From: a virus
Taxonomy: Duplodnaviria; Heunggongvirae; Uroviricota; Caudoviricetes
Direction: 5' to 3' (one strand)
DNA: 23,684 nt
Virus record (IMG/VR): IMGVR_UViG_3300028797_000103
Location: 1 to 23,684 of that record
The position numbers and the translations under genes were made by a program. Shown here piece after piece: positions 9,370 to 22,495 of this stretch (positions are counted from its first letter, which is position 1; every line of letters begins with the position of its first letter). Under the pieces are notes generated by a model, which was not told the DNA's origin, made no database searches, and saw nothing but the letters and a program-made list of their open reading frames with translations.

Positions 9370-9831
9370 TTATTTAAGATATATTATGTTTTGATTTGTA
9401 GAACCCCTGAATAAAGCATCTTCATCTTTCAATTCTTCTATAAAAGGACCATCAACCAAAACATCTATTTCTCTGAGAATTGAATTTATTTTATCATCAT
9501 TCATAGCGACGAGTTCATCCATCGTAAACCCAGTATATATCCATATGTTTATGTCTGGTATCCTGTGTTTAAGTTGAGTAATGAGCTCAAGCACTTCATC
9601 TCTCCTATACATTGGGTCTCCGCCAGACAGTGTAACTTTATGATTGTCGTATTCTTCAACCAAATCTACAATTTCAGAAATCTCCATTTCTTTCCCGCCA
9701 TGAAAATCCCAAGATTCAGGGTTATGACAACCCTTGCATTTGTGTGCACACCCGGCAAAATAAACTGCGGTTCTCAAACCAGTCCCGTCGACAGCTGTAT
9801 CTGGTATTATATCTAATATTCTTGTTTTCAT
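9370..9831 (-). CDS. nrdG: Anaerobic ribonucleotide reductase activating enzyme (radical SAM)
   Basis: VDGTGLRTAVYFAGCAHKCKGCHNP (CxxxCxxC), TLSGGDP, DVLVDGPF, FRGSTNQ. Confidence 0.96.
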   Translation of the reverse strand: MKTRILDIIPDTAVDGTGLRTAVYFAGCAHKCKGCHNPESWDFHGGKEMEISEIVDLVEEYDNHKVTLSGGDPMYRRDEVLELITQLKHRIPDINIWIYTGFTMDELVAMNDDKINSILREIDVLVDGPFIEELKDEDALFRGSTNQNIIYLK

Positions 9832-10394
9832 AATAAAAATCTCCTTATATTACATCCTATTGTATTTCCCAACAAAACTATTCCCCAATATGCAAGAGCA
9901 TCAAGAGTGAACATCTTTGAAGAGAATATGTAAAAAGGTTCTGCAATCGAATGATAAAAACCAGATAGGATAAAAAGAGGAACGCCTATCAAAACCGGAA
10001 CAGGGTTAAAGGATGGAAAGTTTTTATATATGTATACAGATACATCAACAATCAATCCGCACATTATTGCCCGCCCCAATATCTCTAAAAATCCTTTCGA
10101 CATTTTTGTCGCTTCAACGGCAGTAAGCGAATCTACATCTCCAGTAAAAATCAAAGAAATCAACAAACATCCGATTAAATTTCCAAACAAAGTTTTAACG
10201 ACAAACCAAAGATCGTCTCTCTTAAATGTAGTTGAACCTACACACCCTGTATACAGTGGTGTGCCGAGACACAGTATTGTAATTAAACCGAATGAGAATA
10301 AAATCGCGCCAACAACTCCGCCGACTACGGCGTAAGCCCACGCACCGGCAGAAATGAGCACGCCGGATAAAATTGCTCTAGCAAACTGTTTCAT
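9828..10394 (-). CDS. Formate/nitrite transporter (FNT) family channel, 188 aa; start MKQFARAIL at 10394
   Basis: Six hydrophobic segments with FNT motifs AILSGVLISAG, FSFGLITI..LYTG, GNLIG, AIMCGLIV, FILSGFYHSIA, GNTIG; ATGA overlap with nrdG. Confidence 0.85.
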   Translation of the reverse strand: MKQFARAILSGVLISAGAWAYAVVGGVVGAILFSFGLITILCLGTPLYTGCVGSTTFKRDDLWFVVKTLFGNLIGCLLISLIFTGDVDSLTAVEATKMSKGFLEILGRAIMCGLIVDVSVYIYKNFPSFNPVPVLIGVPLFILSGFYHSIAEPFYIFSSKMFTLDALAYWGIVLLGNTIGCNIRRFLL

Positions 10395-10396
10395 TT

Positions 10397-10407
10397 TGCA
10401 AATATAC
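10397..10407 (-). promoter_or_regulatory. Bacteroidota-type -7 promoter (GTATATTTGCA) directly before the FNT start
   Basis: GTATATTTGCAAAATG on the minus strand. Confidence 0.75.
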
Positions 10408-10417
10408 AGAAAATATT

Positions 10418-10456
10418 TGAAAAATAGAGCCTCTATGAAAGAGGCTCGTTTTTTAT
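10418..10456 (-). terminator. Intrinsic terminator after nrdD
   Basis: Perfect 8-bp stem GAGCCUCU/AGAGGCUC with 5-nt loop, followed by UAUUUUU. Confidence 0.8.
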
Positions 10457-12768
10457 TTTTGAACTTCGTGCTGAATTCTGTCTTTGAACTCTGCTTGTTT
10501 TCCTGAGTTCCACCTGTCGACAGTAGAAACAAGATATCCTGTTATTCTTTGTAGAACAGACACGTTTTTGCTTCCACAAACCGGACAATACTTTTCTCCG
10601 TTTTCATCAACTGGAAATTCTTTTACGCTTTCGTGACAGCAATGGTCGCATCTTGCTACATTATGGTTAAAGCTTCCGTAACCGATGTCATATTTGTCCA
10701 TAAGGTCAACTATATTCATAACGGCTTCCGGATTCTTTTCAAGTTCACCATCGAGCTCAACGTAAAAAATGTGACCGGCCGGAGTAATCTTATGATAAGG
10801 AGCCTCGACTTCAGCTTTGTGTTTCGCTGAGCAGTGATACCAAACCGGAACGTGATTTGAGTTTGTATAATAATCCTTGTCAGTCACTCCTTTTATCTCT
10901 CCGTATTCCTTCTTGTCCACCTTAGTAAACTTTCCAGAAAGACCCTCAGCTGGTGTAGCAAAACAGCTATAATTGTGATTATACTTCTCTGAAAACTCCT
11001 TGCATCTTTTATCTATTAAAGAAACAATTTCAAGACCAAGCTTCTGAGCGTATTCTGATTCTCCATGATGTTTCCCAACAAGAGCAACTAAGGTCTCAGC
11101 AAGACCAATAAATCCAACACCCAAAGTGCCATGCTTAATGACTGGTTCAATTGTATCTTCCGGATCAAGTTTATCCGAACCGTTCCAGAGACCGCTCATA
11201 AGCAAAGGGAACTGCTTAGCCTTTGCTGTAGATTGGAATTGATATCTTTCATCAAGTTGCTTAGCTACTATATCGAGAGCTTTGTTCAGCTCATCAAAGA
11301 ATAACGATATTGTTTCTCTCTGAATATCTTTCTCAAGCACATCAGAAACGGAATGTTCGTCATATATACTTACAATCTTTCCGTCCTTTTCATAAAGAGA
11401 TGCAGTTGCCAAAGCAGCTTCAATTGCAAGCTTCGGAAGATTTATCGTGGTAAACGAAAGATTACCCCTTCCGATTGATGTTGGATATTCGCCAAACCTA
11501 TTTCCATAAACTCTTGTTCTGCAACCCATCGTTGCGACTTCGTGCACATATCTCTTTGGATCATTTTTATCCCACAGCGGGTCAACATTATATGACGCAT
11601 CAAGATTCAAGAAATTCGGGAAAAATCTTCTTGCAGAAACCTTACATGCGAGTTTATACAAATCATAATTTGGATCTTCAGGAAGATAGCTAACGCCGCG
11701 CTTTTTCTTCCAAATCTGGATAGGGAAAATTGCTGTGCTTCCATTGCCTACACCTTCGTATGTCGAATTTAAAATTTCCCTTATAACGCAGCGTCCTTCT
11801 GCCGACGTGTCGGTTCCATAGTTAACGGAGCTAAATACGACCTGATTTCCGCCACGGCTATGTATCTGATTCATATTATGAATAAACGCCTCCATAGCCT
11901 GATGGACTCTGTTAACGGTTTCGTTTATAGCGTGCTGCTTCCATCTTTCATCACCAGACAGCCCATCAAGTGACTTTACAATATAATCATCGATTTCTGC
12001 GTCTTTAAGGTTACTATGATCAATTCCGTGTAAAGCTGATATCTTATCAATCTCCTCTTTGTATGTAGCCCTAACATAAGGAGCAAGATAAAAATCAAAC
12101 GCAGGAATAGCCTGACCTCCATGCATTTCATTCTGAACAGTCTCCATAGATATACAAGCTATGATTGCTGCCGTCTCGATTCTCTTCGGAGCTCTGGACT
12201 CTCCATGCCCTGCTCTGAATCCATTTTCGAATATCCTGTCAAGCGGGTGCTGAATACAGGTTAAACTTTTTGTTGGATAGTAATCTTTGTCATGAATATG
12301 AACTATATTGTTGTCTACATATTCTTTGACATCTTCTGAAATAAGATAATTGTCTACAAAGGTCTTTGTCGTTTCACTCGCAAACTTCATCATCATTCCG
12401 GCTGGCGTGTCAGCGTTCATGTTTGCGTTCTCTCTGGTTATGTCATTTGCCTTTGTAGCCACAATCTCATCAAACATAACCTTTGTCTTCGATTGTCTTG
12501 CCACGTCTCTTCTGTGGCGTTCTTTTACGTATTCACGGGCTGCGTCTTTTCTAGTTGAACTCATCAGTCTTTTTTCAACGATATCGTGAATTTCCTCAAC
12601 TGATAACTGTTTTACATTTTTGCTTTCAACGTAGTCAATGATCTTTTCAATAATTTCTTCATCAACCCCCTTCTTTGTCCTTTGCATCGCAAGAGCGACA
12701 GCCTTTCTAATTTTCTCAGCGTCAAATTCAACAATTCGACCATCCCGCTTAATTACAGTTTCTAACAT
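10453..12768 (-). CDS. nrdD: Class III anaerobic ribonucleoside-triphosphate reductase with N-terminal ATP cone
   Basis: ATP cone VIKRDGRIVEFDAEKI; MGCRT; TPAEGLS; zinc site CDHC...CPVC; glycyl-radical loop RITGYL. Confidence 0.97.
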   Translation of the reverse strand: MLETVIKRDGRIVEFDAEKIRKAVALAMQRTKKGVDEEIIEKIIDYVESKNVKQLSVEEIHDIVEKRLMSSTRKDAAREYVKERHRRDVARQSKTKVMFDEIVATKANDITRENANMNADTPAGMMMKFASETTKTFVDNYLISEDVKEYVDNNIVHIHDKDYYPTKSLTCIQHPLDRIFENGFRAGHGESRAPKRIETAAIIACISMETVQNEMHGGQAIPAFDFYLAPYVRATYKEEIDKISALHGIDHSNLKDAEIDDYIVKSLDGLSGDERWKQHAINETVNRVHQAMEAFIHNMNQIHSRGGNQVVFSSVNYGTDTSAEGRCVIREILNSTYEGVGNGSTAIFPIQIWKKKRGVSYLPEDPNYDLYKLACKVSARRFFPNFLNLDASYNVDPLWDKNDPKRYVHEVATMGCRTRVYGNRFGEYPTSIGRGNLSFTTINLPKLAIEAALATASLYEKDGKIVSIYDEHSVSDVLEKDIQRETISLFFDELNKALDIVAKQLDERYQFQSTAKAKQFPLLMSGLWNGSDKLDPEDTIEPVIKHGTLGVGFIGLAETLVALVGKHHGESEYAQKLGLEIVSLIDKRCKEFSEKYNHNYSCFATPAEGLSGKFTKVDKKEYGEIKGVTDKDYYTNSNHVPVWYHCSAKHKAEVEAPYHKITPAGHIFYVELDGELEKNPEAVMNIVDLMDKYDIGYGSFNHNVARCDHCCHESVKEFPVDENGEKYCPVCGSKNVSVLQRITGYLVSTVDRWNSGKQAEFKDRIQHEVQK

Positions 12769-12998: not shown

Positions 12999-13778
12999 AT
13001 GAAATATTTCAAATACAAAGACTTAGGTGAAGCAACTCCAGAAGATGTCGATCTTTCTTCATTTGAGTTGAAAGACGAACTAAATAAAAAATTCTGGATT
13101 GATGGTAAATTAAATAGAAGCGTTAGGGTTGACCTTTTAAAAATTACAAGAGATTTTTTGGAAAATCTTGAAATAGAAGGAATATCCATTGAAGATATTA
13201 TATTCACCGGCTCATTGGCAAACTACAATTGGAACGAAGATTATTCAGACATAGACCTTCATATAGTATTAGATTTTAAAACAATTGGAGACGACGAAGA
13301 CCTTGTTAAAAAATATTTTGATGCAGTAAGAAAAAATTGGAACGATAGACATGATGAAATAAAGATACTTGGATATCCAGTTGAACTGTACGTCCAAGAC
13401 ATAAAAGAAAAACACACATCAAGCGGAGTATATTCAGTATTAAACGATGAATGGATTGAAAAACCATCAAAGGACAAAATAAAAAATGACAACCTCGACA
13501 ACGAAAAAATTTCGACAAAAGCGGCAGAGTTAATGACTGATATAGAAGACTTAGAAACAGAATTCGAATCAACAACAGATTACTGGGATTTATATATAAA
13601 AGCCGATGAGCTGTTCGACAAAATAAAATCAATAAGAAAAGATAATTTCACAAGCGGAAACAAAGAAATGTCAGAAGGAAATCTAATATTCAAAACATTA
13701 AGAAGAAACGGATATCTTGAACGACTAGTTGAACTAAAAACAAAATGTTACGACAAATCAAGAAGTATAGAAAAATAG
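12999..13778 (+). CDS. DNA polymerase beta superfamily nucleotidyltransferase
   Basis: hGS...DhDh motif IIFTGSLANYNWNEDYSDIDLHIV, third acidic strand PVELYVQD, helical C-terminal domain. Confidence 0.85.
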   Translation: MKYFKYKDLGEATPEDVDLSSFELKDELNKKFWIDGKLNRSVRVDLLKITRDFLENLEIEGISIEDIIFTGSLANYNWNEDYSDIDLHIVLDFKTIGDDEDLVKKYFDAVRKNWNDRHDEIKILGYPVELYVQDIKEKHTSSGVYSVLNDEWIEKPSKDKIKNDNLDNEKISTKAAELMTDIEDLETEFESTTDYWDLYIKADELFDKIKSIRKDNFTSGNKEMSEGNLIFKTLRRNGYLERLVELKTKCYDKSRSIEK

Positions 13779-13880: not shown

Positions 13881-16850
13881 TTAGATTCTCTTGAAAATTC
13901 TGATTCCAGACGCAGACTCAACAAGTCTGTAACCCCTCTGCTGTAGAGATTCTGCAAATGCAGATGCACCAGTAGCGGAAGATCTTGATTTGTATGCATC
14001 ATATGTATCTGCTGCGTCCAAAATCGTTTCGATGTCTGGAAGAATTGTTTTTATAATTCTAGCCTTGGCTTCGATCTTTTCTTTTGTTCCGAGAACATCA
14101 ACATCAGTCTTCTTCATAAGTTCTGAACCGGCTATATGTTTAAACGCTTCAAGAACATCTTTGTGGTCTGCAAGATATTCGAAGTCACCGGAGTTTACAA
14201 TTGTATTACCAAACTTAGCAACATCTCTAATATCCGCCACTATCGTATCAATGTTTCTAGATATTGTTCTCTTAAGAGAATTATCAGAAATGAGTCCAAG
14301 ATTCTTTCTTATTGTTCCGATTGCAATTCTCAATGAACTTGCATATCCTGTAACCTTTGTCACATCGGAAGTAAATGAATCCACATCAACACCGGATGGT
14401 CTAACTTCACTTTGGTCGATAACATCAGATAGCTTCTTCTGCTCTTCCTCTCTTGTTTTCAAATTTGTATTTAAATCTACAATGTAGTCATAAACCTTTC
14501 CCTTTAGAGGAGTTTCGCCCAATTCGTCGGCTATGTTGTTGTATTTCTGAATAAGGTCATCTAATGTTTTTGCAATGTCCTTAAAGTTTATCACAATCTC
14601 TTTATCTGAGAGTGAACCATCTCTTATAACAGTCATTTTGTCAACAACATTGAACAAATTAGAAACAAATTCAGAAACGTTATTATACGCTACATCGTTT
14701 GATTCTATTTCATCTGCACCATGTTTTGTATAGAAACCAAGTACACCGTCTATCAATGTTGGGATAAAGAGAAATACTTTTCTAACCTGATCCAAATCTA
14801 CACCAGCAGCAGATGCTTTATTTTTCTCAAAAGCGCCCTTTATGACGGCATAAGCATCTTGTCTCAAATTATCGTTTTCAAGGTTTTCCTTAACCTGCTT
14901 TATTGCGCCAAACACCTTTCCAATATTTTCAGAAAAGTCTCCAATTTCTCCCTGCAATCCAATCTTCGAAAGAGCTCTGCTTGCTACAGTCTGCATTCTC
15001 TTAATGTTTTCTTCCTTAACATTAACGTTAATTTTATATTCTTTAGCCATCTTGTCTGGGAAAAGAAGACAAACTGTTGCAGGAGCAGCTTTATCTGAAG
15101 ATAGATTCGAAGGTTCGTATGATCCTCTTTTTGCTGATGTACCGGACAACTTGACATCCATAATTGATTTTATTATATCAACCAATTCATCCTTGCTCCC
15201 TTGTTCTATGTCATCAACCGTATACGTAGGACAGGTATCCTTTAAACGTATACCACAGCCAAATGCAATACACTTCAAGAACTTTTCGCTCAAAGAATTT
15301 ATCAACTTCTCGTTAAGAGGGTTGTGTTTTTCCGCCGCAAGAACAAAATTGTTTCTACAGGTGCTTATGTCGTTTGAATTTATATCCTTAAAGAAAACAG
15401 TTTTTCTATCATCTCCAGCATATCCCTTAAAATTGTAATTAAGTTCGCATACGAATTTTTCTTTTTTGGGATCTTCATTTAAGGTCCAAGAACCTCTTCC
15501 GAACAAAATGTCCATAACCCTATCAAAAGTTTCATCTTCTGATGCTCTATTTAGGTCAAAAACAGATGATATATATCTTCTTGAATAATCAGACGCACTC
15601 TTTGTAAGATGGTTGCAGAGCCACCAATATGCACAAGAGTATACCCATTTTGCAACAGTCGTGTCTTCATCCTTCGTTACTTCATTAGGAGTCATACCAA
15701 ACTCTTTAAAGGAACCAAACATCCTTTCATAATAATCGTTTCTGTCCTTTATTGTATTATAAATCGTGTTAGAGTCTGATACGCTTGTAAGATTTCTAGA
15801 GTCATCCTTCAGGTAAACAAGAGTTGGGTATTTTGCAGATGGAGTATAAGCATAAACCATACTTATAAGACCATTCTTTGTTGTGAATATCTTAATACCT
15901 TTAAATTTTCCTCTTACGCTAAGATCTCTTGCGATTTCAAACGGATTGTCGATAACGTCTACATCAGAGTCATTTATGTTACCCCAAGGAATAGTTATTA
16001 TTGGGTCTATGACATCAAAAAGGATTCTCTTGTTAATGTTTTTGACGATTTTTGCATTTCCACTTAACTCCTGTCCATGCCTTGCTGGTATCAATGCAGA
16101 CAACTTTGTCCCCATTTCTTCATTAAGGGATGATATATACTTTTCGCCAAGATTGAATCTTTTCTTAGCCTCTATTAAAAGTTCACTTTTCATATCTTGA
16201 TTTTCAGATTTACTTTCATTTGCATCACCAGAAAGACGTTTAATGTACTTATTAGCCTGAAGCTGATTAAATTTGTTAATCATCTTTATTTCAACATCTC
16301 CTGTAACAACGCCCGGAGCATTCTCATAATCTATTGGTCTTGGAATGTTTCTAACAACTACACTTCCATCAACCTTCTTTGGGAATCCAACTGGAAATAG
16401 TTTAACGTCATTCTTTCCAAATAGATTTGACAATTCTATATTTCCTATCAGTTCATCAAATATAACCCCCGTTTCGCACACAGCAACAACACCAGCTATG
16501 TTTTCATTTGTTATGTCTAGGTGTAGAACAACAGTTTCTTCGTCTGTTATGAAATAAGATTCTTCTGTATTTTCACAAGAGAAAAGATTAGCAACTGGAC
16601 TTACATCCGGAAGGTTTTCTTTCATTGTTTTGACAATTTCACCGAACACTTCGTCGTATTTTCCGGTTCTTCTTGCAAAAGCAATATCGGCAAGTCTAGC
16701 TGCTCGCTTCTTTTCTTCATCTGAAGCTGAATCTGCCTGCTTAAATATTTCAACGTCGTCTACGGTTTTTTCACCAGACTGGATTTCGTCATCCAAGTCA
16801 TAGAGATCCAAACTAGTTACACGTCCTTCTGTTATTTTAAGTTTCTTCAT
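13881..16850 (-). CDS. Large (~989 aa) hypothetical protein; N-terminal ~200 aa paralogous to the C-terminal domain of the vWA protein; probable start MKKLKITEG
   Basis: Long ORF; the ATG at 16868 overlaps a GATAAATA motif, so ATG 16850 is preferred. Confidence 0.8.
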   Translation of the reverse strand: MKKLKITEGRVTSLDLYDLDDEIQSGEKTVDDVEIFKQADSASDEEKKRAARLADIAFARRTGKYDEVFGEIVKTMKENLPDVSPVANLFSCENTEESYFITDEETVVLHLDITNENIAGVVAVCETGVIFDELIGNIELSNLFGKNDVKLFPVGFPKKVDGSVVVRNIPRPIDYENAPGVVTGDVEIKMINKFNQLQANKYIKRLSGDANESKSENQDMKSELLIEAKKRFNLGEKYISSLNEEMGTKLSALIPARHGQELSGNAKIVKNINKRILFDVIDPIITIPWGNINDSDVDVIDNPFEIARDLSVRGKFKGIKIFTTKNGLISMVYAYTPSAKYPTLVYLKDDSRNLTSVSDSNTIYNTIKDRNDYYERMFGSFKEFGMTPNEVTKDEDTTVAKWVYSCAYWWLCNHLTKSASDYSRRYISSVFDLNRASEDETFDRVMDILFGRGSWTLNEDPKKEKFVCELNYNFKGYAGDDRKTVFFKDINSNDISTCRNNFVLAAEKHNPLNEKLINSLSEKFLKCIAFGCGIRLKDTCPTYTVDDIEQGSKDELVDIIKSIMDVKLSGTSAKRGSYEPSNLSSDKAAPATVCLLFPDKMAKEYKINVNVKEENIKRMQTVASRALSKIGLQGEIGDFSENIGKVFGAIKQVKENLENDNLRQDAYAVIKGAFEKNKASAAGVDLDQVRKVFLFIPTLIDGVLGFYTKHGADEIESNDVAYNNVSEFVSNLFNVVDKMTVIRDGSLSDKEIVINFKDIAKTLDDLIQKYNNIADELGETPLKGKVYDYIVDLNTNLKTREEEQKKLSDVIDQSEVRPSGVDVDSFTSDVTKVTGYASSLRIAIGTIRKNLGLISDNSLKRTISRNIDTIVADIRDVAKFGNTIVNSGDFEYLADHKDVLEAFKHIAGSELMKKTDVDVLGTKEKIEAKARIIKTILPDIETILDAADTYDAYKSRSSATGASAFAESLQQRGYRLVESASGIRIFKRI

Positions 16851-17550
16851 CGTGTGTGTATTTATCATTTAATTAAAAGTGAATGACACTCTTTGTGATA
16901 TTTATCCTTAATTGAACACAGAAATTCTCCCAAACTCTATGTTCTTTCCATTTCTAAGTCTATTCTCAATTTGCTTTACCCTTGAAAGCGGAATTTTGTT
17001 AGACAGAAAACCAAGATCAACGTTTCCTGTAACAGTTGTCGGGAAGTTTTTATCGTTCAATAATTTTGGTAAAAATTCAACCTCAAAATCACCGTCTATT
17101 ACTTTTGGAAAACCATCAGGAAATTCTTCAACTGTATCACAATCATCTACAGATATGTTTCCGATGATCTTATCGACAATATATTTTGAGCACACGTATA
17201 ACAAATCGACAAATTTACTGTCTTTTATATCAGTATGAAGTATTATCGTTTCGTCGTCTGTTATGAAATATGTGTTCTCGTCATTTTCACATTTAAATTC
17301 GCTTTCAACAGGAGAAACATTTGGAAATCGTTCTTTCATAACGTTGATGATTTCACCAAAAACTTCCTCATACTTTCCGGTTCTTCTTGCAAAAGCAAGA
17401 TCTGCCAATCTTGATGATTTCTTTTTTTCTTCATCACTGAGACTATCATGCTTTTTAAAGTATTCTATATCATCTACAGAAATACGCCCAGCTTGAATTT
17501 CGTCATCCAAATCATAATTATCAAGATTTTCTACTCTACTTTCATTAACG
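16230..17550 (-). repeat. Diverged direct duplication (~0.6 kb units, 714-nt offset) spanning the junction of two genes
   Basis: Identical 25-mer at 16660-16684 and 17374-17398; identical 17-mer at 16540-16556 and 17254-17270; shared peptides YDLDDEIQ, SDEEKK, AFARRTGKY, YFITD. Confidence 0.92.
16859..16906 (-). promoter_or_regulatory. Two tandem T4-late-like GATAAATA motifs (16899-16906, 16859-16866)
   Basis: Both lie in the 57-nt intergenic gap, oriented toward the 989-aa gene. Confidence 0.6.
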
Positions 17551-19622
17551 TCGGATGAATCATCATCGTCCAAAGAATTTTGTATACGAAGTTTATTGAC
17601 AACCATAAATTTAGAATCGGCTGCAATAGAATTTCTAACATCTTCCTTTACCTCAGACATCGTCATAGAATAAGAGTCGTCATATATTAAATAGAACATT
17701 TTCTCTGTGCATGATGGATTCAATCCATCTGCTTCTATGCTGTCTCCTGTTCCGGTGATACCAGAATGGTCTGAAAGTATAATGATGAAATCGATTTCTC
17801 CGTCTAATTCTCCTCTATCTGTATAGTTTTTGTATATATGTTTGTATACCGCGTCAGGAGACGTTCCACCGCTCCTTATCTTAACTCCGTTATCATTAAA
17901 TATATCATATGCGTCTTCTGGACTCATATCAATATATCTGTCTCTATCGTAAACGCTATCAGCAAACAGATGGAAATCTACACTTTGGAAGTTATTTTGC
18001 ATCAGGAGCTCAGAAACTTCTTTAAGCATCGATATAACAAATCCTATAGCAGAACCAGACGTATCAAGATAAACCAGACACTTTTTCAAAGAATCTTTTG
18101 TTCTATATGAATTCTTCATATAGAGTCCAGATCTTGATGCGACATTTTTGTTGAAATGTCTATATTCTTTATTCGTTGAATAGGATGAGATGTAATCCTG
18201 AAGCTCTCCTTTCCAGTCAATGTCACTATCAACTGCCTCTTTAAGAGAGGCAATCATATTTTCGTTTGATTCTTTAATTCCTTCGTTTGCCGCCGGGACA
18301 TTGGCTCGTTCATTGCTTCTCATCTGAGCACCAGTAGCCTTTAACGCGTTTAGGACATCGTTATCATTTCCCTCTACACCATAATCGTCCTTTGCATTAG
18401 TTTCCGCATTAAGTTCATCCAATATTTCTTTAGCTTCTTCATCTGTTAATACTTTATCGGAGAATTTTCCGGACTTATCTCCGGTATTTCTCATAGCGAC
18501 TTTATCGCTTCCCCCATATTCACTTTCGGCTTTTTCTAAAGTATCCTCATATTCTTCTGCGGTCATCTTCTGTGAACCAGACGATCCGCTTCCGCCTCCA
18601 TTTTGATTAGAACTTCCAGTGTCGTTGCCGCCATCAGAACCAGAATCATTGCCAGATTCTCCACCGTTTCCTTCTGAATCGCTTCCATTAGAATCATTTC
18701 CCTTACCGGAACCAGGCTCTATTTCATCTGAAGAATCGGAACCACCATTATTCGAATTTGAATTTTCTCCATCCTTTCCCCCATTTTCTCCATTTTCTCC
18801 ATTTGAATCCCCACCTTTGTTGGAACTTGAAGAATCTTCTCCGGATTTATCACCATCGCCCTTGCCTTCACCGGAGGAACCTCCGCTATTCTCAGAATCA
18901 GACTGTGATCCATCCGAAGAATCGGAACCACCTTTCTGTCCTTGATTTGCGTCATCGGAACCACCTTGCTGACTTTGTCCTCCTTGCTGACCTTGTTGAT
19001 TCTGTCCTCCTTGCTGACCTTGTTGATTCTGTTGATTCTGTTGATTCTGTTGATTCTGTTGTCCACCCTGATTATTTTGTGAACCCTGATTATTCTGCTG
19101 TTGCTGTGGAGGATTATTCAATTCAAAAGGTGATGGACCATTTTGAGCACCACCGGACTGTGGTTCTGGTTCATAATCCTTAAATATCTGATTGATATAA
19201 TCTACAATTTTTTGATAAGCTTCTTCATTATTCATTGATGTAACAATCATCTGGTTGATTGCTTTTATGTAATCCTCTTTATTACGAACATCATATGTAG
19301 AAGCACTTTCATGAAGAGCTTTTATTATAGAAACATCTATATCCGGAATCTCATATTCAATATCAGGTTTTACGCCATGGTGATTAAACATGTACTCTGC
19401 ATACAATTTTCCAAAATAGAACCCCCTGAGATACTCAGGATCCTCCCTATTCAATTTAGGATCGTTTAGGTTTGGTTCATCCTGAGGTGAACCATCTGGC
19501 TGTTGGTTATCTTCATTTTCCGGAAAAATTTTATCAACGATTATACGTGCTGCTTCAGCTGGTTCAAACCCTTTTCCAAGAACAACTCGTATACTATTCT
19601 CGCTTTCTTTAGTCAATCTCAT
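16908..19622 (-). CDS. vWA (MIDAS) domain protein, DUF2201 C-terminal-like, with long Q/G/S/N linker and extra C-terminal duplicated domain; probable start ATG 19622
   Basis: DIDWKGELQDYIS precedes CLVYLDTSGS (DxSxS), SGGTS, FIIILSD; adjacent to MoxR ATPase and HExxH genes. Confidence 0.85.
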   Translation of the reverse strand: MRLTKESENSIRVVLGKGFEPAEAARIIVDKIFPENEDNQQPDGSPQDEPNLNDPKLNREDPEYLRGFYFGKLYAEYMFNHHGVKPDIEYEIPDIDVSIIKALHESASTYDVRNKEDYIKAINQMIVTSMNNEEAYQKIVDYINQIFKDYEPEPQSGGAQNGPSPFELNNPPQQQQNNQGSQNNQGGQQNQQNQQNQQNQQGQQGGQNQQGQQGGQSQQGGSDDANQGQKGGSDSSDGSQSDSENSGGSSGEGKGDGDKSGEDSSSSNKGGDSNGENGENGGKDGENSNSNNGGSDSSDEIEPGSGKGNDSNGSDSEGNGGESGNDSGSDGGNDTGSSNQNGGGSGSSGSQKMTAEEYEDTLEKAESEYGGSDKVAMRNTGDKSGKFSDKVLTDEEAKEILDELNAETNAKDDYGVEGNDNDVLNALKATGAQMRSNERANVPAANEGIKESNENMIASLKEAVDSDIDWKGELQDYISSYSTNKEYRHFNKNVASRSGLYMKNSYRTKDSLKKCLVYLDTSGSAIGFVISMLKEVSELLMQNNFQSVDFHLFADSVYDRDRYIDMSPEDAYDIFNDNGVKIRSGGTSPDAVYKHIYKNYTDRGELDGEIDFIIILSDHSGITGTGDSIEADGLNPSCTEKMFYLIYDDSYSMTMSEVKEDVRNSIAADSKFMVVNKLRIQNSLDDDDSSDVNESRVENLDNYDLDDEIQAGRISVDDIEYFKKHDSLSDEEKKKSSRLADLAFARRTGKYEEVFGEIINVMKERFPNVSPVESEFKCENDENTYFITDDETIILHTDIKDSKFVDLLYVCSKYIVDKIIGNISVDDCDTVEEFPDGFPKVIDGDFEVEFLPKLLNDKNFPTTVTGNVDLGFLSNKIPLSRVKQIENRLRNGKNIEFGRISVFN
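18560..19160 (-). repeat. Low-complexity Q/N/G/S linker with tandem repeats
   Basis: tgttgattc x4 (19021-19056); exact 27-mer x2 (18976-19029); G/S/D/N-rich tract following in the protein. Confidence 0.9.
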
Positions 19623-20334
19623 AATGCTCAATTAACCCCTTACTTTTTAAATAATCGCGATAACCCTCAACAGCAGCCCTAAATCCTTCCTTAAACAAAT
19701 CGCTTGTTTTTTGAACCTCTTCTGTATCATCACCCGGTTTATCCGGTATCTGATTATAAATCGTCTGCCATGGTAAATTTTTAAAATTTTCATCATAGCA
19801 ACCATTCATTTTCTCAGTCATTCCTTTATAATCATCACGAATATGATTTTCTATATAATAGTTCACTTGGTAATCCATTGCTCTATTCTCTCTATCCTGG
19901 TTTGGTTTATGAATAGTTTTTGGAGAGCAGTGACCATATACTATATGCATAACCTCGTGAATTAAAACATATTCCATACACATAACAGGAGTTGCAAAAT
20001 CGAATTTTCCAGTAGAAGCATCAACTGAACCAACTCTAGCTATTGTTCTTTCAACCCAAGCAGGATTTATAAAGAAGCTGTGACCGTTTGTTGCCATTGT
20101 GTCAATCTTTGGGTGATCCGTATAGAATATATCTTTACTTTCCAAATATCTGAACCATTGAGGAAACTCACTTCTTATGTTACTGAGTGCAGCATCAATA
20201 ACCCTATCAACGGTTTTTATATCAACAGTACCACCTTCGGGGCGAAGCCAAATAAGATTTCGCCCCGAACGGTTTGTTGTTATTACACCGTTTCCACCAC
20301 CGGATGATTCCAATAATATTTTTTCAATAATCAT
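19609..20334 (-). CDS. Putative zinc metallopeptidase (DUF2201 N-terminal-like, HExxH)
   Basis: DTMATNG..FFINP, YVLIHEVMHIVYGH, NRAMDYQVN. Confidence 0.85.
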   Translation of the reverse strand: MIIEKILLESSGGGNGVITTNRSGRNLIWLRPEGGTVDIKTVDRVIDAALSNIRSEFPQWFRYLESKDIFYTDHPKIDTMATNGHSFFINPAWVERTIARVGSVDASTGKFDFATPVMCMEYVLIHEVMHIVYGHCSPKTIHKPNQDRENRAMDYQVNYYIENHIRDDYKGMTEKMNGCYDENFKNLPWQTIYNQIPDKPGDDTEEVQKTSDLFKEGFRAAVEGYRDYLKSKGLIEHYEID

Positions 20335-20353: not shown

Positions 20354-22495
20354 TTAACCAAGCCAATTCTGTGCTGTTGCTACACCAAACACCTTCGCTA
20401 TAGCTGTTCTTACGAAATGTTTTTCTTCATCAGCAGATTTAACTTCACTGGGTTTAGCATAACCACATCTCTGCGTTAAACAATCCAAGAAAGTTTGCGC
20501 TTTATCACCACCCTGTTGATTTCCCTTTGTCTTGTCTATCAACTTACCAAAAGCATAAATCAATTTTGCAAGACCATCAGTTGGAATACAGTTTTCAAAT
20601 CCATTAAGAAGATTCTGTATTGCAGAATTAAGAGAAACATTCGAAAAATATTCCTCGATAGCATCTTTGCTTGTGTAGAAAGCGGTAGTAAACTTATCGG
20701 CGACCTCCTGCCTTGGTGTATAAGCATCACCCTTTTCAAGCATTTCTTTCAAATCTGTAAACGAAAGTCCGTTCATCTTCATTGTTAGATAATCGATTAC
20801 CTTCTCTGCCAATTTTGTTCCAAGACCCATGTAAATTGTCGACGCAACAAGTTCATCCGACAATATGTCGAAAATATAATCATCATAGTGTTTTCCTTGG
20901 ACAATTGTAATCTTTCCACTGTCAATAAGATCGTCTATGATGATTCTTATGTCTTGAGAAAGCTGCTCCCATCTTCTTGGACAAGCTTGAACAAGAGTAC
21001 AATCGAGATCCTGAGGTCTACTCATATCTTGTCTGGCAAGTGCATAATATGAATCTGGATTTGCGTCTATAAACTCTATAAAGTTTTTATTCACTTTACT
21101 AAAATTCGGCATGCTATCTGCTTTGCCAAGAGCCCAATCTTTCCACTCGCTATATTTTGGAACAAAATTGCACATTTTAAAACGACCAGTTGCGGCAGAA
21201 TCAAATCCTATGAGTCTTAATGAACCAGTACCTTTTCTTGTTATGTCACTGTATCTGTTGGATGCGCAAACAACAACCCATTTTGTTCCAAGTCTCAAAT
21301 CTGAGTTCGAACCAATTTGTCTACTCAACGGCATATCAAATATCGATGCCATACCAGCATCTGACATTCTTACAAACTCGTCGATAAAGAAGAATCCGCC
21401 ATCACCATCGCCATCACACAAACCATCGTCATTTGGAATTGCTCCGTTTGCTAAATAAATTCTCTGATTTAATTCATCTTTTGATATAGAATTATCAAAT
21501 TCATAAACCGGCATCCAAGATTTTGGAAGATCTTTTATGATTTTGTCACCGAGGGCACCAACTGCGCCGTTCATTTCTTCAGTGCCCTTTGAAATTGCAC
21601 TTTTGAAAATTTCTTTTTGTCTCTTGTTTCTATACTCTCTAGAAACCTGAGCTGGCATTGTAAACGCCTCTGGTTCAATATTTGATGCCATAACAGTCAA
21701 AACAGGAACATTTCCATGTTCTGCTGCAACAGCTTTAATTATAGATGTTTTTCCGATACCTGGTGCACCCCATATAAACAATGGCCACTCTCTATCAACC
21801 TGACCTTTAACTCTAGCTCTATATGCAAGATGAAGCATTCTGCACAAAATCTCAGTATTAACATCAACAAACTTCTCGTTCGTTAGTACAAGGACGTCTT
21901 CCTTCTCTGAACCGTAAACTGTTCCCTGTTTTACGTTTTCCTGCGACTCGTTTAATCTCATCGGGTTTCCGTTTTTATCAAACTCATGATCACAATATAT
22001 TGCTGAACCGGCATAAGCATAGTCAGAAACCTTTGGTTCAAAAGATCTGGCAGTTACACCAAGGTCATCAGCAAAATTAACCATATCTTCTGATGGAATA
22101 AACCCAATAGCGTCGTTTTCGGATGCTGCTAACATTCCATTAACTGGGTGGATTGCTCTTGCAATCTCACCGTTTTCCTGCTGGAACCAAATTCTGTTCT
22201 TAGCTTTTATTATTCTTGAAATTACATAATCAACTGCACCTTTTATTGCGCTGCCTATTTTCTTGCCAAATTTACCAAACTCACTTGCGGCGCCCTTTAC
22301 GATATCGCTGAGTTTTCCTTCATTTACGAGTTTAAGAACACTTTCATCTATCTTATCCAAAGACGTTACTTTATTCTTGTCAACGTCCTTTATAACACCA
22401 CTTTTGAATCTAACGATGTATCTTCCTGCATTCTCGTTAAGAAGCTCACAATTTACGGTTTGATTTCCATTTGAACCAATTATATACTTTGCCAT
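20354..22495 (-). CDS. MoxR-family AAA+ ATPase with ~200-aa N-terminal extension
   Basis: Walker A IWGAPGIGKT, Walker B FFIDEF, sensor-1 VCASNR, Arg finger DSAATGRF, sensor-2-like CPRRW. Confidence 0.9.
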   Translation of the reverse strand: MAKYIIGSNGNQTVNCELLNENAGRYIVRFKSGVIKDVDKNKVTSLDKIDESVLKLVNEGKLSDIVKGAASEFGKFGKKIGSAIKGAVDYVISRIIKAKNRIWFQQENGEIARAIHPVNGMLAASENDAIGFIPSEDMVNFADDLGVTARSFEPKVSDYAYAGSAIYCDHEFDKNGNPMRLNESQENVKQGTVYGSEKEDVLVLTNEKFVDVNTEILCRMLHLAYRARVKGQVDREWPLFIWGAPGIGKTSIIKAVAAEHGNVPVLTVMASNIEPEAFTMPAQVSREYRNKRQKEIFKSAISKGTEEMNGAVGALGDKIIKDLPKSWMPVYEFDNSISKDELNQRIYLANGAIPNDDGLCDGDGDGGFFFIDEFVRMSDAGMASIFDMPLSRQIGSNSDLRLGTKWVVVCASNRYSDITRKGTGSLRLIGFDSAATGRFKMCNFVPKYSEWKDWALGKADSMPNFSKVNKNFIEFIDANPDSYYALARQDMSRPQDLDCTLVQACPRRWEQLSQDIRIIIDDLIDSGKITIVQGKHYDDYIFDILSDELVASTIYMGLGTKLAEKVIDYLTMKMNGLSFTDLKEMLEKGDAYTPRQEVADKFTTAFYTSKDAIEEYFSNVSLNSAIQNLLNGFENCIPTDGLAKLIYAFGKLIDKTKGNQQGGDKAQTFLDCLTQRCGYAKPSEVKSADEEKHFVRTAIAKVFGVATAQNWLG

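Follow-up and report, generated by a model that had tools for sequence, protein, structure and literature searches.

MoxR-vWA pairs are widespread remodelling machines. To our knowledge, few of their targets have been identified, and virion assembly is the one role suggested for them in phages. In T4-like (group 2.2) jumbo phages, a MoxR AAA+ ATPase is paired with a metallopeptidase-vWA protein, for which a role in virion assembly and processing was put forward (Iyer et al. 2021, PMC7824862). In bacterial MoxR-vWA ternary conflict systems, effector-associated domains (EADs) supply an adaptor logic (Kaur et al. 2020, PMC7159879).

We analysed a 23,684-nt window (the whole stretch of DNA under study) from the 151.7-kb contig of a cattle-gut giant phage, which is T4-like by a Portal_T4 match (E 3.5e-49). 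The module in this window comprises the following features, where X1 and X2 are two copies of a domain that we call X, and BIG is the region behind the second copy.

20354..22495, minus strand: MoxR-like AAA+ ATPase, 713 aa (Pfam AAA, E 1.2e-5; AAA_5, E 3e-4)
19609..20334, minus strand: HExxH metallopeptidase-like protein, 241 aa, in its own gene (Pfam DUF2201_N)
16908..19631, minus strand: vWA protein P0001, 907 aa (translation)
17538..17549, minus strand: VNES motif before X1, P0001 695-698 (aligned to the family pre-X motif)
16908..17549, minus strand: X1, C-terminus of the vWA protein, P0001 695-907, predicted folded core from ~729 (BLASTP paralogy)
16851..16907, minus strand: intergenic spacer with three in-frame TAA codons and two GATAAATA words
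13881-16868, minus strand: next protein, P0002, 995 aa (translation)
16824..16835, minus strand: ITEG motif before X2, P0002 12-15, 5 residues past the likely start (leader MKKLKITE)
16203..16835, minus strand: X2, N-terminus of P0002, residues 12-222, predicted folded core ~46-218 (BLASTP paralogy, AF2)
16212..16220, minus strand: NES motif just past X2, P0002 217-219 (Glu column 100% in 20 family proteins)
13881..16202, minus strand: BIG, a ~770-aa region sitting directly behind X, to which it is fused in most relatives

The AAA+ ATPase keeps its Walker A (GAPGIGKT) and Walker B (FFFIDE) motifs in 7/7 orthologues checked; we call it MoxR-like on the AAA_5 match and its context only. The HExxH protein matched Pfam DUF2201_N at E 4.5e-4 (20.3 bits, under the 23.2-bit cut-off), and its HExxHxxxxH motif was intact in 11/11 loci. 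P0001 consists of a helical N-terminus, ~250 aa of low complexity rich in Q, N, G, S and D, a predicted vWA domain with a DTSGS MIDAS and then X1. The MIDAS residues D-T-S-G-S, T and D were invariant or nearly so in 13 relatives. A Pfam scan of P0001 (E up to 0.1) gave no match, and profile support for the vWA domain was weak, coming from the relative P0008 only (DUF2201, E 0.0026, 18.3 bits, short of the 26.4-bit cut-off). The likely true start of P0002 is Met7 at 16850, giving the 989 aa of the preliminary description. Among PHROGs, P0001 had no family and P0002 only a weak match of unknown function; BIG matched no Pfam or PHROG family. In a profile search, the last ~300 aa of BIG had only compositional PDB matches, to designed helical bundles, which suggest a helical-bundle tail.

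The window module is a variant of the known jumbo-phage MoxR/peptidase-vWA pair. As in that pair, a MoxR-like ATPase in a large T4-like phage has as neighbours a predicted vWA protein and a putative HExxH peptidase. In the Prevotella Lak phages, the nearest named phages, the gene after the ATPase encodes an 851-aa protein bearing HExxH (in Lak-C1). Unlike in the jumbo-phage pair, the peptidase is not fused to the vWA N-terminus but is a separate gene in 11/11 loci, slightly overlapping the vWA gene in the window and all 10 related loci; Lak-C1 is without the long low-complexity region, the X domain and the ~770-aa BIG of the vWA protein described here; and in the window the vWA protein is split into two genes.

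The duplication of a ~190-aa domain at the C-terminus of the vWA protein and the N-terminus of the next protein, noted in the preliminary description, is real: BLASTP aligned P0001 695-876 with P0002 12-197 at 96/186 identical residues (52%; 72% positives; E 1e-55). At the DNA level, direct repeats of 130 nt (76%) and 67 nt (70%) were spaced 714 nt apart. The reported gap-free alignment at this offset was borne out for the first ~120 residues, but two later indels, of 1 and 3 residues, interrupt it. Exactly two X copies were present on the whole 151.7-kb contig.

Purifying selection keeps both copies, as had been surmised. Between X1 and X2, dN was 0.47 and dS ~2, which is saturated, so dN/dS is at most ~0.24 (Nei-Gojobori). 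Population variants in other cattle-gut metagenomes were 32 synonymous against 4 non-synonymous for both copies together (X1, 17 and 3; X2, 15 and 1), and every family-invariant residue was present in both. Neither copy was found to be evolving neutrally, and the distant relative L013 retains both. Among the data sets listed as containing the stretch, none is recorded as an RNA run.

X is a small family, with 24 matches among 1.84 billion representative proteins. By its sequence, X is a previously undescribed domain family of ~170-210 residues. No Pfam, PHROG or PDB sequence family matched it, nor did any other well-described family, and PDB sequence profiles of X and of the whole protein returned chance or compositional matches only. 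A word-index protein search with P0002 1-215 returned the query alone, P0002 had no tblastn match in 50,697 phage records, and back-translated IMG/VR scans with X, P0007 and P0006 likewise gave nothing where alignment-based scans succeeded.

Gene order was constant across the related loci, running from a 265-aa protein through the AAA+ ATPase and the HExxH protein to vWA-X(-X)-BIG, with incomplete contigs judged on the genes that they reach. In most relatives vWA-X-BIG is a single protein of 1,300-2,100 aa with one X (L004, L005, L009, L010 and most database matches) or two tandem X (L003/L011, L012, L014 and P0006), and stand-alone X proteins also exist (P0010, P0015, P0019 and P0020). A split between X1 and X2 occurs in the window and L013 only. 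Because most relatives carry one polypeptide, we read the two window genes as the parts of a single protein that meet at X; and because the relatives are fused and the split falls exactly between the X copies, the window records a domain duplicated in tandem and the later fission of its gene. By design, X is an internal domain of a giant protein and not a free small protein. The preliminary description had offered X as a tag linking the 989-aa protein to the MoxR-vWA machine; in evolutionary terms this link is supported, the parts being one polypeptide in most relatives, while a physical X1-X2 link is our inference.

The gene fission is real. In the window, both open reading frames lie in the same reading frame, separated by the three TAA codons, whereas the L013 junction is an ATGA overlap in a different frame; stop-codon readthrough or frameshifting to a fused protein is thereby ruled out. 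The window and L013 share by position two indels and 9 sites in the LRR-like half of X (described below), and their X2 genes start alike with MKK-x-KI (the L013 orthologue begins MKKIKINEG), so that one duplication and fission predated the divergence of the two. The GATAAATA word was considered as an internal promoter in the spacer and rejected, as its count in the window was not above chance (7 seen against 4.7 expected; 17/100 shuffles reach 7).

Structure prediction and fold searching, proposed in the preliminary description, gave X a predicted fold class of helices capping a short LRR-like solenoid. X models well in this form, with a mean pLDDT of 78.6 in AF2, a core above 90 and short parallel strands; residues 1-45 were below 56, placing the pre-X motif in a segment modelled as disordered. 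A model from only two sequences (pLDDT 47.8) was unusable. The best structural matches (VIA) were LRR and L-domain chains at Z 5.6-4 (full list down to ~3; 100-134 aligned residues), among them the Roco LRR domain, insulin/EGF receptor L domains, plant LRR receptors and tropomodulin, with the proviso that Z below 6 is a level common also for unrelated models. Foldseek found nothing in PDB and BFVD at E 0.001 or better, and the ESM Atlas held no usable match for X or BIG. The likeness to LRR and receptor L-domain solenoids lies in the predicted fold, and in units of ~22 residues (FP-x-x-FP-x-x-I-x-G-x-h-x-h); LRR-like repeat proteins were also the weakest sequence matches of X. X differs from them in having ~4-5 turns only, a family-specific helical N-terminal cap and no Pfam LRR match.

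The helical and LRR-like halves of X have evolved differently. In the window and L013, helical halves were 61-70% identical between paralogues against 33-43% between orthologues, while LRR-like halves were 35-39% identical between paralogues against 43% for X2 orthologues. Grouping by genome was seen at 21 sites, and in trees the paralogues of each genome fell together (support 97/95 and 94/82); plain positional orthology was not firmly rejected in an AU test (p 0.06).

X resembles EADs in that one non-enzymatic domain ends the core component and starts the adjacent gene product (in the window and L013), in that the downstream part is fused straight to the core component in other genomes, and in that within-genome paralogues are closer than orthologues, for X at least in the helical half. 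Unlike EADs, X is retained in the fused forms too; it matched no Pfam EAD family (scan of P0001 and P0002, E up to 0.1); and it belongs to a phage module in which we found no VMAP or iSTAND component.

The explanation that we prefer, and regard as probable if only just, is that the window genes are the halves of an ancestral vWA-X-BIG protein in which X was duplicated and the gene split, X now coupling the halves in one complex. The ancestral giant protein would have been the vWA partner of the phage MoxR-like AAA+ ATPase and HExxH peptidase. Tandem duplication of X, then a split between the copies, took place in the common ancestor of the window phage and L013, leaving a vWA half that ends in X1 and a BIG half that starts with X2. 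X would act as a coupling module where the two parts meet. In each genome its copies keep their helical halves matched while the LRR-like halves diverge, and the matched helical halves most likely hold the vWA half (as ATPase adaptor) and the BIG half (as cargo or effector) in one complex. This coupling logic is modelled on the EADs of bacterial MoxR-vWA systems. X1 and X2 may associate physically; a predicted complex of the X1 and X2 cores scored 0.00 in two runs, a result that, having come without controls, speaks neither for nor against binding. Since X also occurs in unsplit proteins, it needs a role beyond re-joining halves. The module as a whole may act as an assembly chaperone or a remodelling machine.

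A further possibility, which we rate somewhat below even, is that a Glu-specific protease cuts at the conserved hydrophobic-N-E-[A/G/S] motifs of the domain borders, be it a prohead protease of T4 type or the HExxH peptidase of the module itself, and that the giant protein is a polyprotein. X1 and X2 would then be freed with equivalent new N-termini, and the gene split would hard-wire one of the cuts; this is compatible with fission and coupling and does not exclude them. T4 propeptides are 10-20 residues long, with prohead-protease cleavage after Glu (PMC5694885). Cleavage at the Glu motifs here, which resemble T4-type sites, is plausible. The preliminary description had each copy beginning right after a putative cleavage site: the sites are present (VNE/S and ITE/G, the slash marking the cut), but the folded core of the AF2 model begins ~35-45 residues past the motif. 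The E-site cluster that it placed after the second copy was found at ANES (Glu218) and LNEE (Glu250), in columns that are 100% Glu in 20 family proteins. Among these proteins (mean identity ~25%), only 8 columns reach 70% Glu, and 4/8 are linker motifs: before vWA, before X (Glu in 18/20, 90%), NES after X (100%) and NE-x (100%). The window VNES was aligned to the pre-X motif separately, as whole-protein MAFFT misplaces the window row at that column. In the NES after X2, E867 and S868 are invariant (alignment A2).

Consistent with processing, the pre-X motif lies in the segment modelled as disordered and, in stand-alone and split X proteins, only 5-15 residues from the start, resembling T4 capsid-targeting sequences and propeptides in its short N-terminal leader and hydrophobic-x-Glu followed by a small residue (PMC5694885). 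The phage is T4-like, and its relative G001 encodes a gp21-family prohead protease (Peptidase_S77, PF03420, E 3e-17) as well as a Gp23-type capsid protein with VNES and LNEE in its N-terminal region. In a neighbouring protein of 1559 aa, itself in conserved synteny, h-x-E-[S/A/G] sites number 28 where 7.6 would be expected (z 8); its two longest orthologous fragments are likewise enriched (z 4.5 and 6.6), and two shorter ones give z 2.0-2.7. The intact HExxH motif in all 11 loci also fits. P0001 and P0002, however, have 4 such sites each against 3.3 expected, which is chance level and no overall enrichment; the NES and NE-x past X may just open a conserved BIG helix; and, unlike in T4 propeptides, the putative motif is found inside the chain as well, separating domains in a protein of 1,300-2,100 aa. 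The 151-kb fragment, a 38%-complete contig, held no prohead protease gene, and entry of these proteins into the prohead is an assumption. A conserved exposed Glu may instead be a ligand of the vWA metal site, as in MIDAS-ligand binding.

We think it less likely than not that the X copies have simply become subfunctionalised, each binding its own target through a diverged LRR-like half with no X-X contact, the helical half being kept alike only by gene conversion or a common intramolecular role. This would suit the pattern in all six two-X genomes, where the LRR-like halves of paralogues were 22-39% identical and the helical halves 46-70%. It would also suit the tree, in which X was duplicated independently at least three times, also without a gene split, and X1 branches were three to four times the length of X2 branches. 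The matched helical halves may indeed reflect gene conversion instead of a co-evolving interface, given the lower dS there (0.96 in the helical block against saturation elsewhere) and the mosaic of P0014/P0015, where a stretch of 134 identical residues gives way to 29% identity. Left unexplained is why the one fission observed, which the window and L013 inherited from a common ancestor, lies precisely between the X copies so that each half keeps one, and the within-genome matching of helical halves is left with no reason beyond recombination.

It is distinctly improbable that the MoxR/peptidase/vWA-X-BIG module is a capsid-internal machine of cattle-gut megaphages, in which a T4-type prohead protease would cut h-N-E/S to free X and BIG in the head, X-X pairing would keep the products together, these would enter a Prevotella-like host along with the phage DNA, and the recurrent duplication of X and divergence of its LRR-like halves would track changing host targets. 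It is barely credible that the split arose as an artefact or through recent, pseudogenising breakage of a fused two-X gene: the shared reading frame of the window genes would suit this, but the spacer holds three in-frame TAA codons, not one, two further studies yielded contigs that run across the junction unchanged, both halves show a strong excess of synonymous variants, and the distant L013 carries a split in the same position, where the junction differs.

Together, these loci form a natural experiment, in which the same adaptor is fused with one or two X domains, or split exactly between the copies. This arrangement singles out X as a candidate for complex cohesion or target choice, and offers a clear example, open to dating, of a gene that underwent fission once a domain inside it had been duplicated, the two domain halves evolving as a mosaic. 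If the Glu motifs are true cleavage sites, they would also give the protease specificity of an uncultured clade with kinship to the Lak megaphages, and a set of proteins processed in it.

The repeated segment, here termed X, closes one gene of the window (copy X1) and opens the next (copy X2).

16908–19631, minus strand: P0001, the vWA protein (907 aa), with a helical N-terminus, ~250 residues of Q/N/G/S/D-rich low complexity, a DTSGS-motif domain and, last, X1
13881–16868, minus strand: P0002 (995 aa), with X2 at its N-terminus, followed by ~770 aa (BIG)

BLASTP aligned P0001 residues 695–876 with P0002 residues 12–197 (52% identity, 72% positives, E = 1e-55), bearing out the duplication claimed in the preliminary description, and the constant 714-nt offset claimed with it was visible in the DNA. 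The alignment, described there as gapless, was so for the first ~120 residues, with two small indels beyond. These were the only two X copies on the surrounding 151,684-bp contig, which CheckV rated 38% complete, giving a genome of roughly 400 kb. The copies differed with a dN of 0.47 and a dS of about 2, which is saturated, so that dN/dS is at most about 0.24. Both ORFs lie in the same frame with three in-frame TAA codons between them, and contigs from two other studies bridged the junction at 95–99% identity, with positions 16821 to 16965 unchanged. The other studies' contigs showed 15 synonymous variants and 1 non-synonymous variant in X2, and 17 and 3, respectively, in X1, in keeping with the earlier suggestion that both copies are under selection. 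The split is genuine and both halves are maintained. The low-complexity region (window 18400–19200, P0001 residues about 150–400) was highly variable across the family: its counterpart in P0021 was about 800 aa of A/Q-rich repeats, and the database variant P0003 had, relative to the window, a 3-residue indel within the QNQ repeat.

A profile of both copies, run against 1.84 billion representative proteins, recovered a family of 24. In the majority, the vWA part, one X and a BIG homologue form a single chain of 1,300–2,100 aa; some (P0006, P0011) carry two tandem X copies, and a few are short stand-alone X proteins. P0007 (871 aa, C-terminal X) and P0005 (989 aa, N-terminal X), which adjoin each other in locus L013, show the same split as the window, there in different frames with an ATGA overlap. 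Sequence searches of Pfam, PHROG and PDB gave no match to X, and the two weakest profile matches were LRR-like repeat proteins.

Twelve related loci (1 from IMG/VR, 11 from metagenome contigs) shared a gene order of a 265-aa protein, a ~700-aa AAA+ ATPase, a ~240-aa HExxH protein and vWA-X(-X)-BIG. Walker A and B were present in all ATPases checked, HExxHxxxxH in 11 of 11 peptidase-like proteins, and the MIDAS residues of the vWA domain were invariant or nearly so. Synteny also extended upstream of the module, to the gene for a 1559-aa protein and to three small genes. The former, outside the window at 27023–31702 of the contig (minus strand; L015:4023–8702), was conserved there in six related loci, had no Pfam or PHROG family and had Ser after 37 of its 174 Glu residues. 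Directly downstream of P0002, on the opposite strand, lies a stand-alone nucleotidyltransferase (12999–13778, plus strand; NTP_transf_2, E = 1.7e-5), found at the same location in L013 (E = 2e-117).

AlphaFold2, from an alignment of 19 sequences, modelled X with a mean pLDDT of 78.6, rising above 90 in the core (about residues 50–215 of P0002). Helices (50–85) were followed by short strands alternating with turns (95–196) and a closing helix; residues 1–45, which contain an acidic stretch and the ITEG motif, were modelled as disordered. Foldseek returned no match to the model at E = 0.001 or better, and exhaustive structural comparison ranked LRR and L-domain proteins first, with weak values: a Roco LRR scored highest (Z = 5.6), ahead of the L domains of the insulin and EGF receptors (about 5) and, lower still, plant LRR receptors and tropomodulin.

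Maximum-likelihood analysis of 31 X domains placed the window, L013 and the single-X locus L009 in one clade (support 99/99), within which window X1 paired with window X2 (97/95) and L013 X1 with L013 X2 (94/82). The two copies of L012 also paired (99/97), and the X1 copies of L003, L014 and P0006 formed a separate clade (100/100), groupings that imply at least three duplications of X. X1 branches exceeded X2 branches three- to fourfold in length. Positional orthology between the window and L013 was not clearly rejected (AU test, p = 0.06), because site patterns conflict along X: 21 sites, clustered in the N-terminal helices, grouped copies by genome, 9 sites and two indels in the C-terminal half grouped them by position, and only 2 sites showed the crossed pattern. 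In the N-terminal helices the two window copies had derived states in common that set them apart from L013 and from the outgroup.

Identity between X copies of the window and L013, by half
Helical half: within-genome paralogues 61–70%; orthologues 33–43%
LRR-like half: within-genome paralogues 35–39%; orthologues 43% for X2 and 29% for X1

The two X2 genes share the start MKK-x-KI-[TN]-EG. Most simply, these sequences would be explained by one duplication and one fission, both predating the window–L013 divergence, with the helical half subsequently homogenised or co-evolved within genomes. P0014 (residues 324–457) and P0015 (residues 1–134) share an identical 134-residue run followed by 29% identity in the LRR-like half; this pair is a recombination mosaic broken at the helical/LRR junction, indicating that recombination at this boundary occurs within the family.

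Only 8 columns were at least 70% Glu among 20 full-length family proteins, and 4 of these were linker motifs.

ES-[LM]-N, ahead of the vWA domain
h-N-E-[A/G], ahead of X (Glu in 90%)
N-E-S, behind X (Glu in 100%)
N-E-x, about 30 residues past N-E-S (Glu in 100%)

These motifs are tentative candidates for cleavage sites, a possibility compatible with a coupling role for X. Cleavage after Glu is common to the prohead proteases of T4, phiKZ and SPN3US, and leaders in T4 are 10–20 residues long (PMC5694885). The relative genome G001 encodes a Peptidase_S77 protease (PF03420, E = 3e-17), and VNES and LNEE occur in the N-terminal region of its Gp23-type capsid protein. In the 1559-aa neighbour, h-x-E-[S/A/G] sites numbered 28, with 7.6 expected (z = 8); enrichment extended to its two longest orthologous fragments (z = 4.5 and 6.6), with several sites conserved, and two shorter ones reached only 2.0–2.7. 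This neighbour may belong to the head core or be scaffold-like, and undergo heavy processing. Yet the same sites occurred at chance level in P0001 and P0002, and the window's own 151,684-bp fragment carried no protease gene. In G001 the T4-type protease domain opens a 575-aa ORF (L024:1426–3153) that runs on through an extended acidic segment to a helical tail, where several h-x-E-S sites lie; the capsid gene is next (L025:1207–2985).

The contig is T4-like, with a Portal_T4 match (E = 3.5e-49), a UvsX-like RecA, and gp32, DnaB-like helicase, gp46/47-like and NrdD/G-like genes identified by their translated products. Its nearest named relatives were the Prevotella Lak megaphages, at 27% identity over the AAA+ core and, for the G001 capsid protein, 47–48% over the full length. 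In Lak-C1 the ATPase is followed by an 851-aa ORF bearing HExxH, and neither X nor BIG was detectable. The standard code gave open frames for the window's genes, whereas TAG was taken as Gln for the Lak locus; GC was 35–41% here versus 26% in the Lak locus. The window stretch occurred in cattle-gut metagenomes from several studies, with no RNA run among the listed records that contain it. Between nrdD and nrdG lies a hydrophobic ~190–234-aa ORF (9828–10532, minus strand) with FYHSIAEP in its translation. NrdD homologues in relatives (L005:16280–20197, L007:16766–19915, L013:17362–20610) were 1,049–1,305 aa versus 771 aa in the window, and their match was interrupted at query residues about 388 to 490; this points to a large inserted element, such as an intein, in the anaerobic ribonucleotide reductase gene.

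It is firmly supported that X is a previously undescribed LRR-like domain with a real and ancient duplication, that a giant vWA protein partnering MoxR underwent gene fission between its X copies, and that both copies have been constrained long-term. That the two LRR halves took separate targets without X–X contact seems rather unlikely: they have diverged within genomes, but the helical halves have stayed matched. We lean towards X, most likely through that matched helical half, holding the two protein halves in one ATPase-driven complex. The pattern of X fits the defining logic of the effector-associated domains of bacterial MoxR-vWA systems (PMC7159879), although X belongs to none of those families and persists in unsplit proteins. 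As a syntenic ATPase/HExxH/vWA module of a T4-like, Lak-related phage, the locus is the counterpart of the MoxR/metallopeptidase-vWA pair reported from T4-like jumbo phages by Iyer et al., who suggested for it a role in virion assembly (PMC7824862); here the pair is extended by X and BIG.
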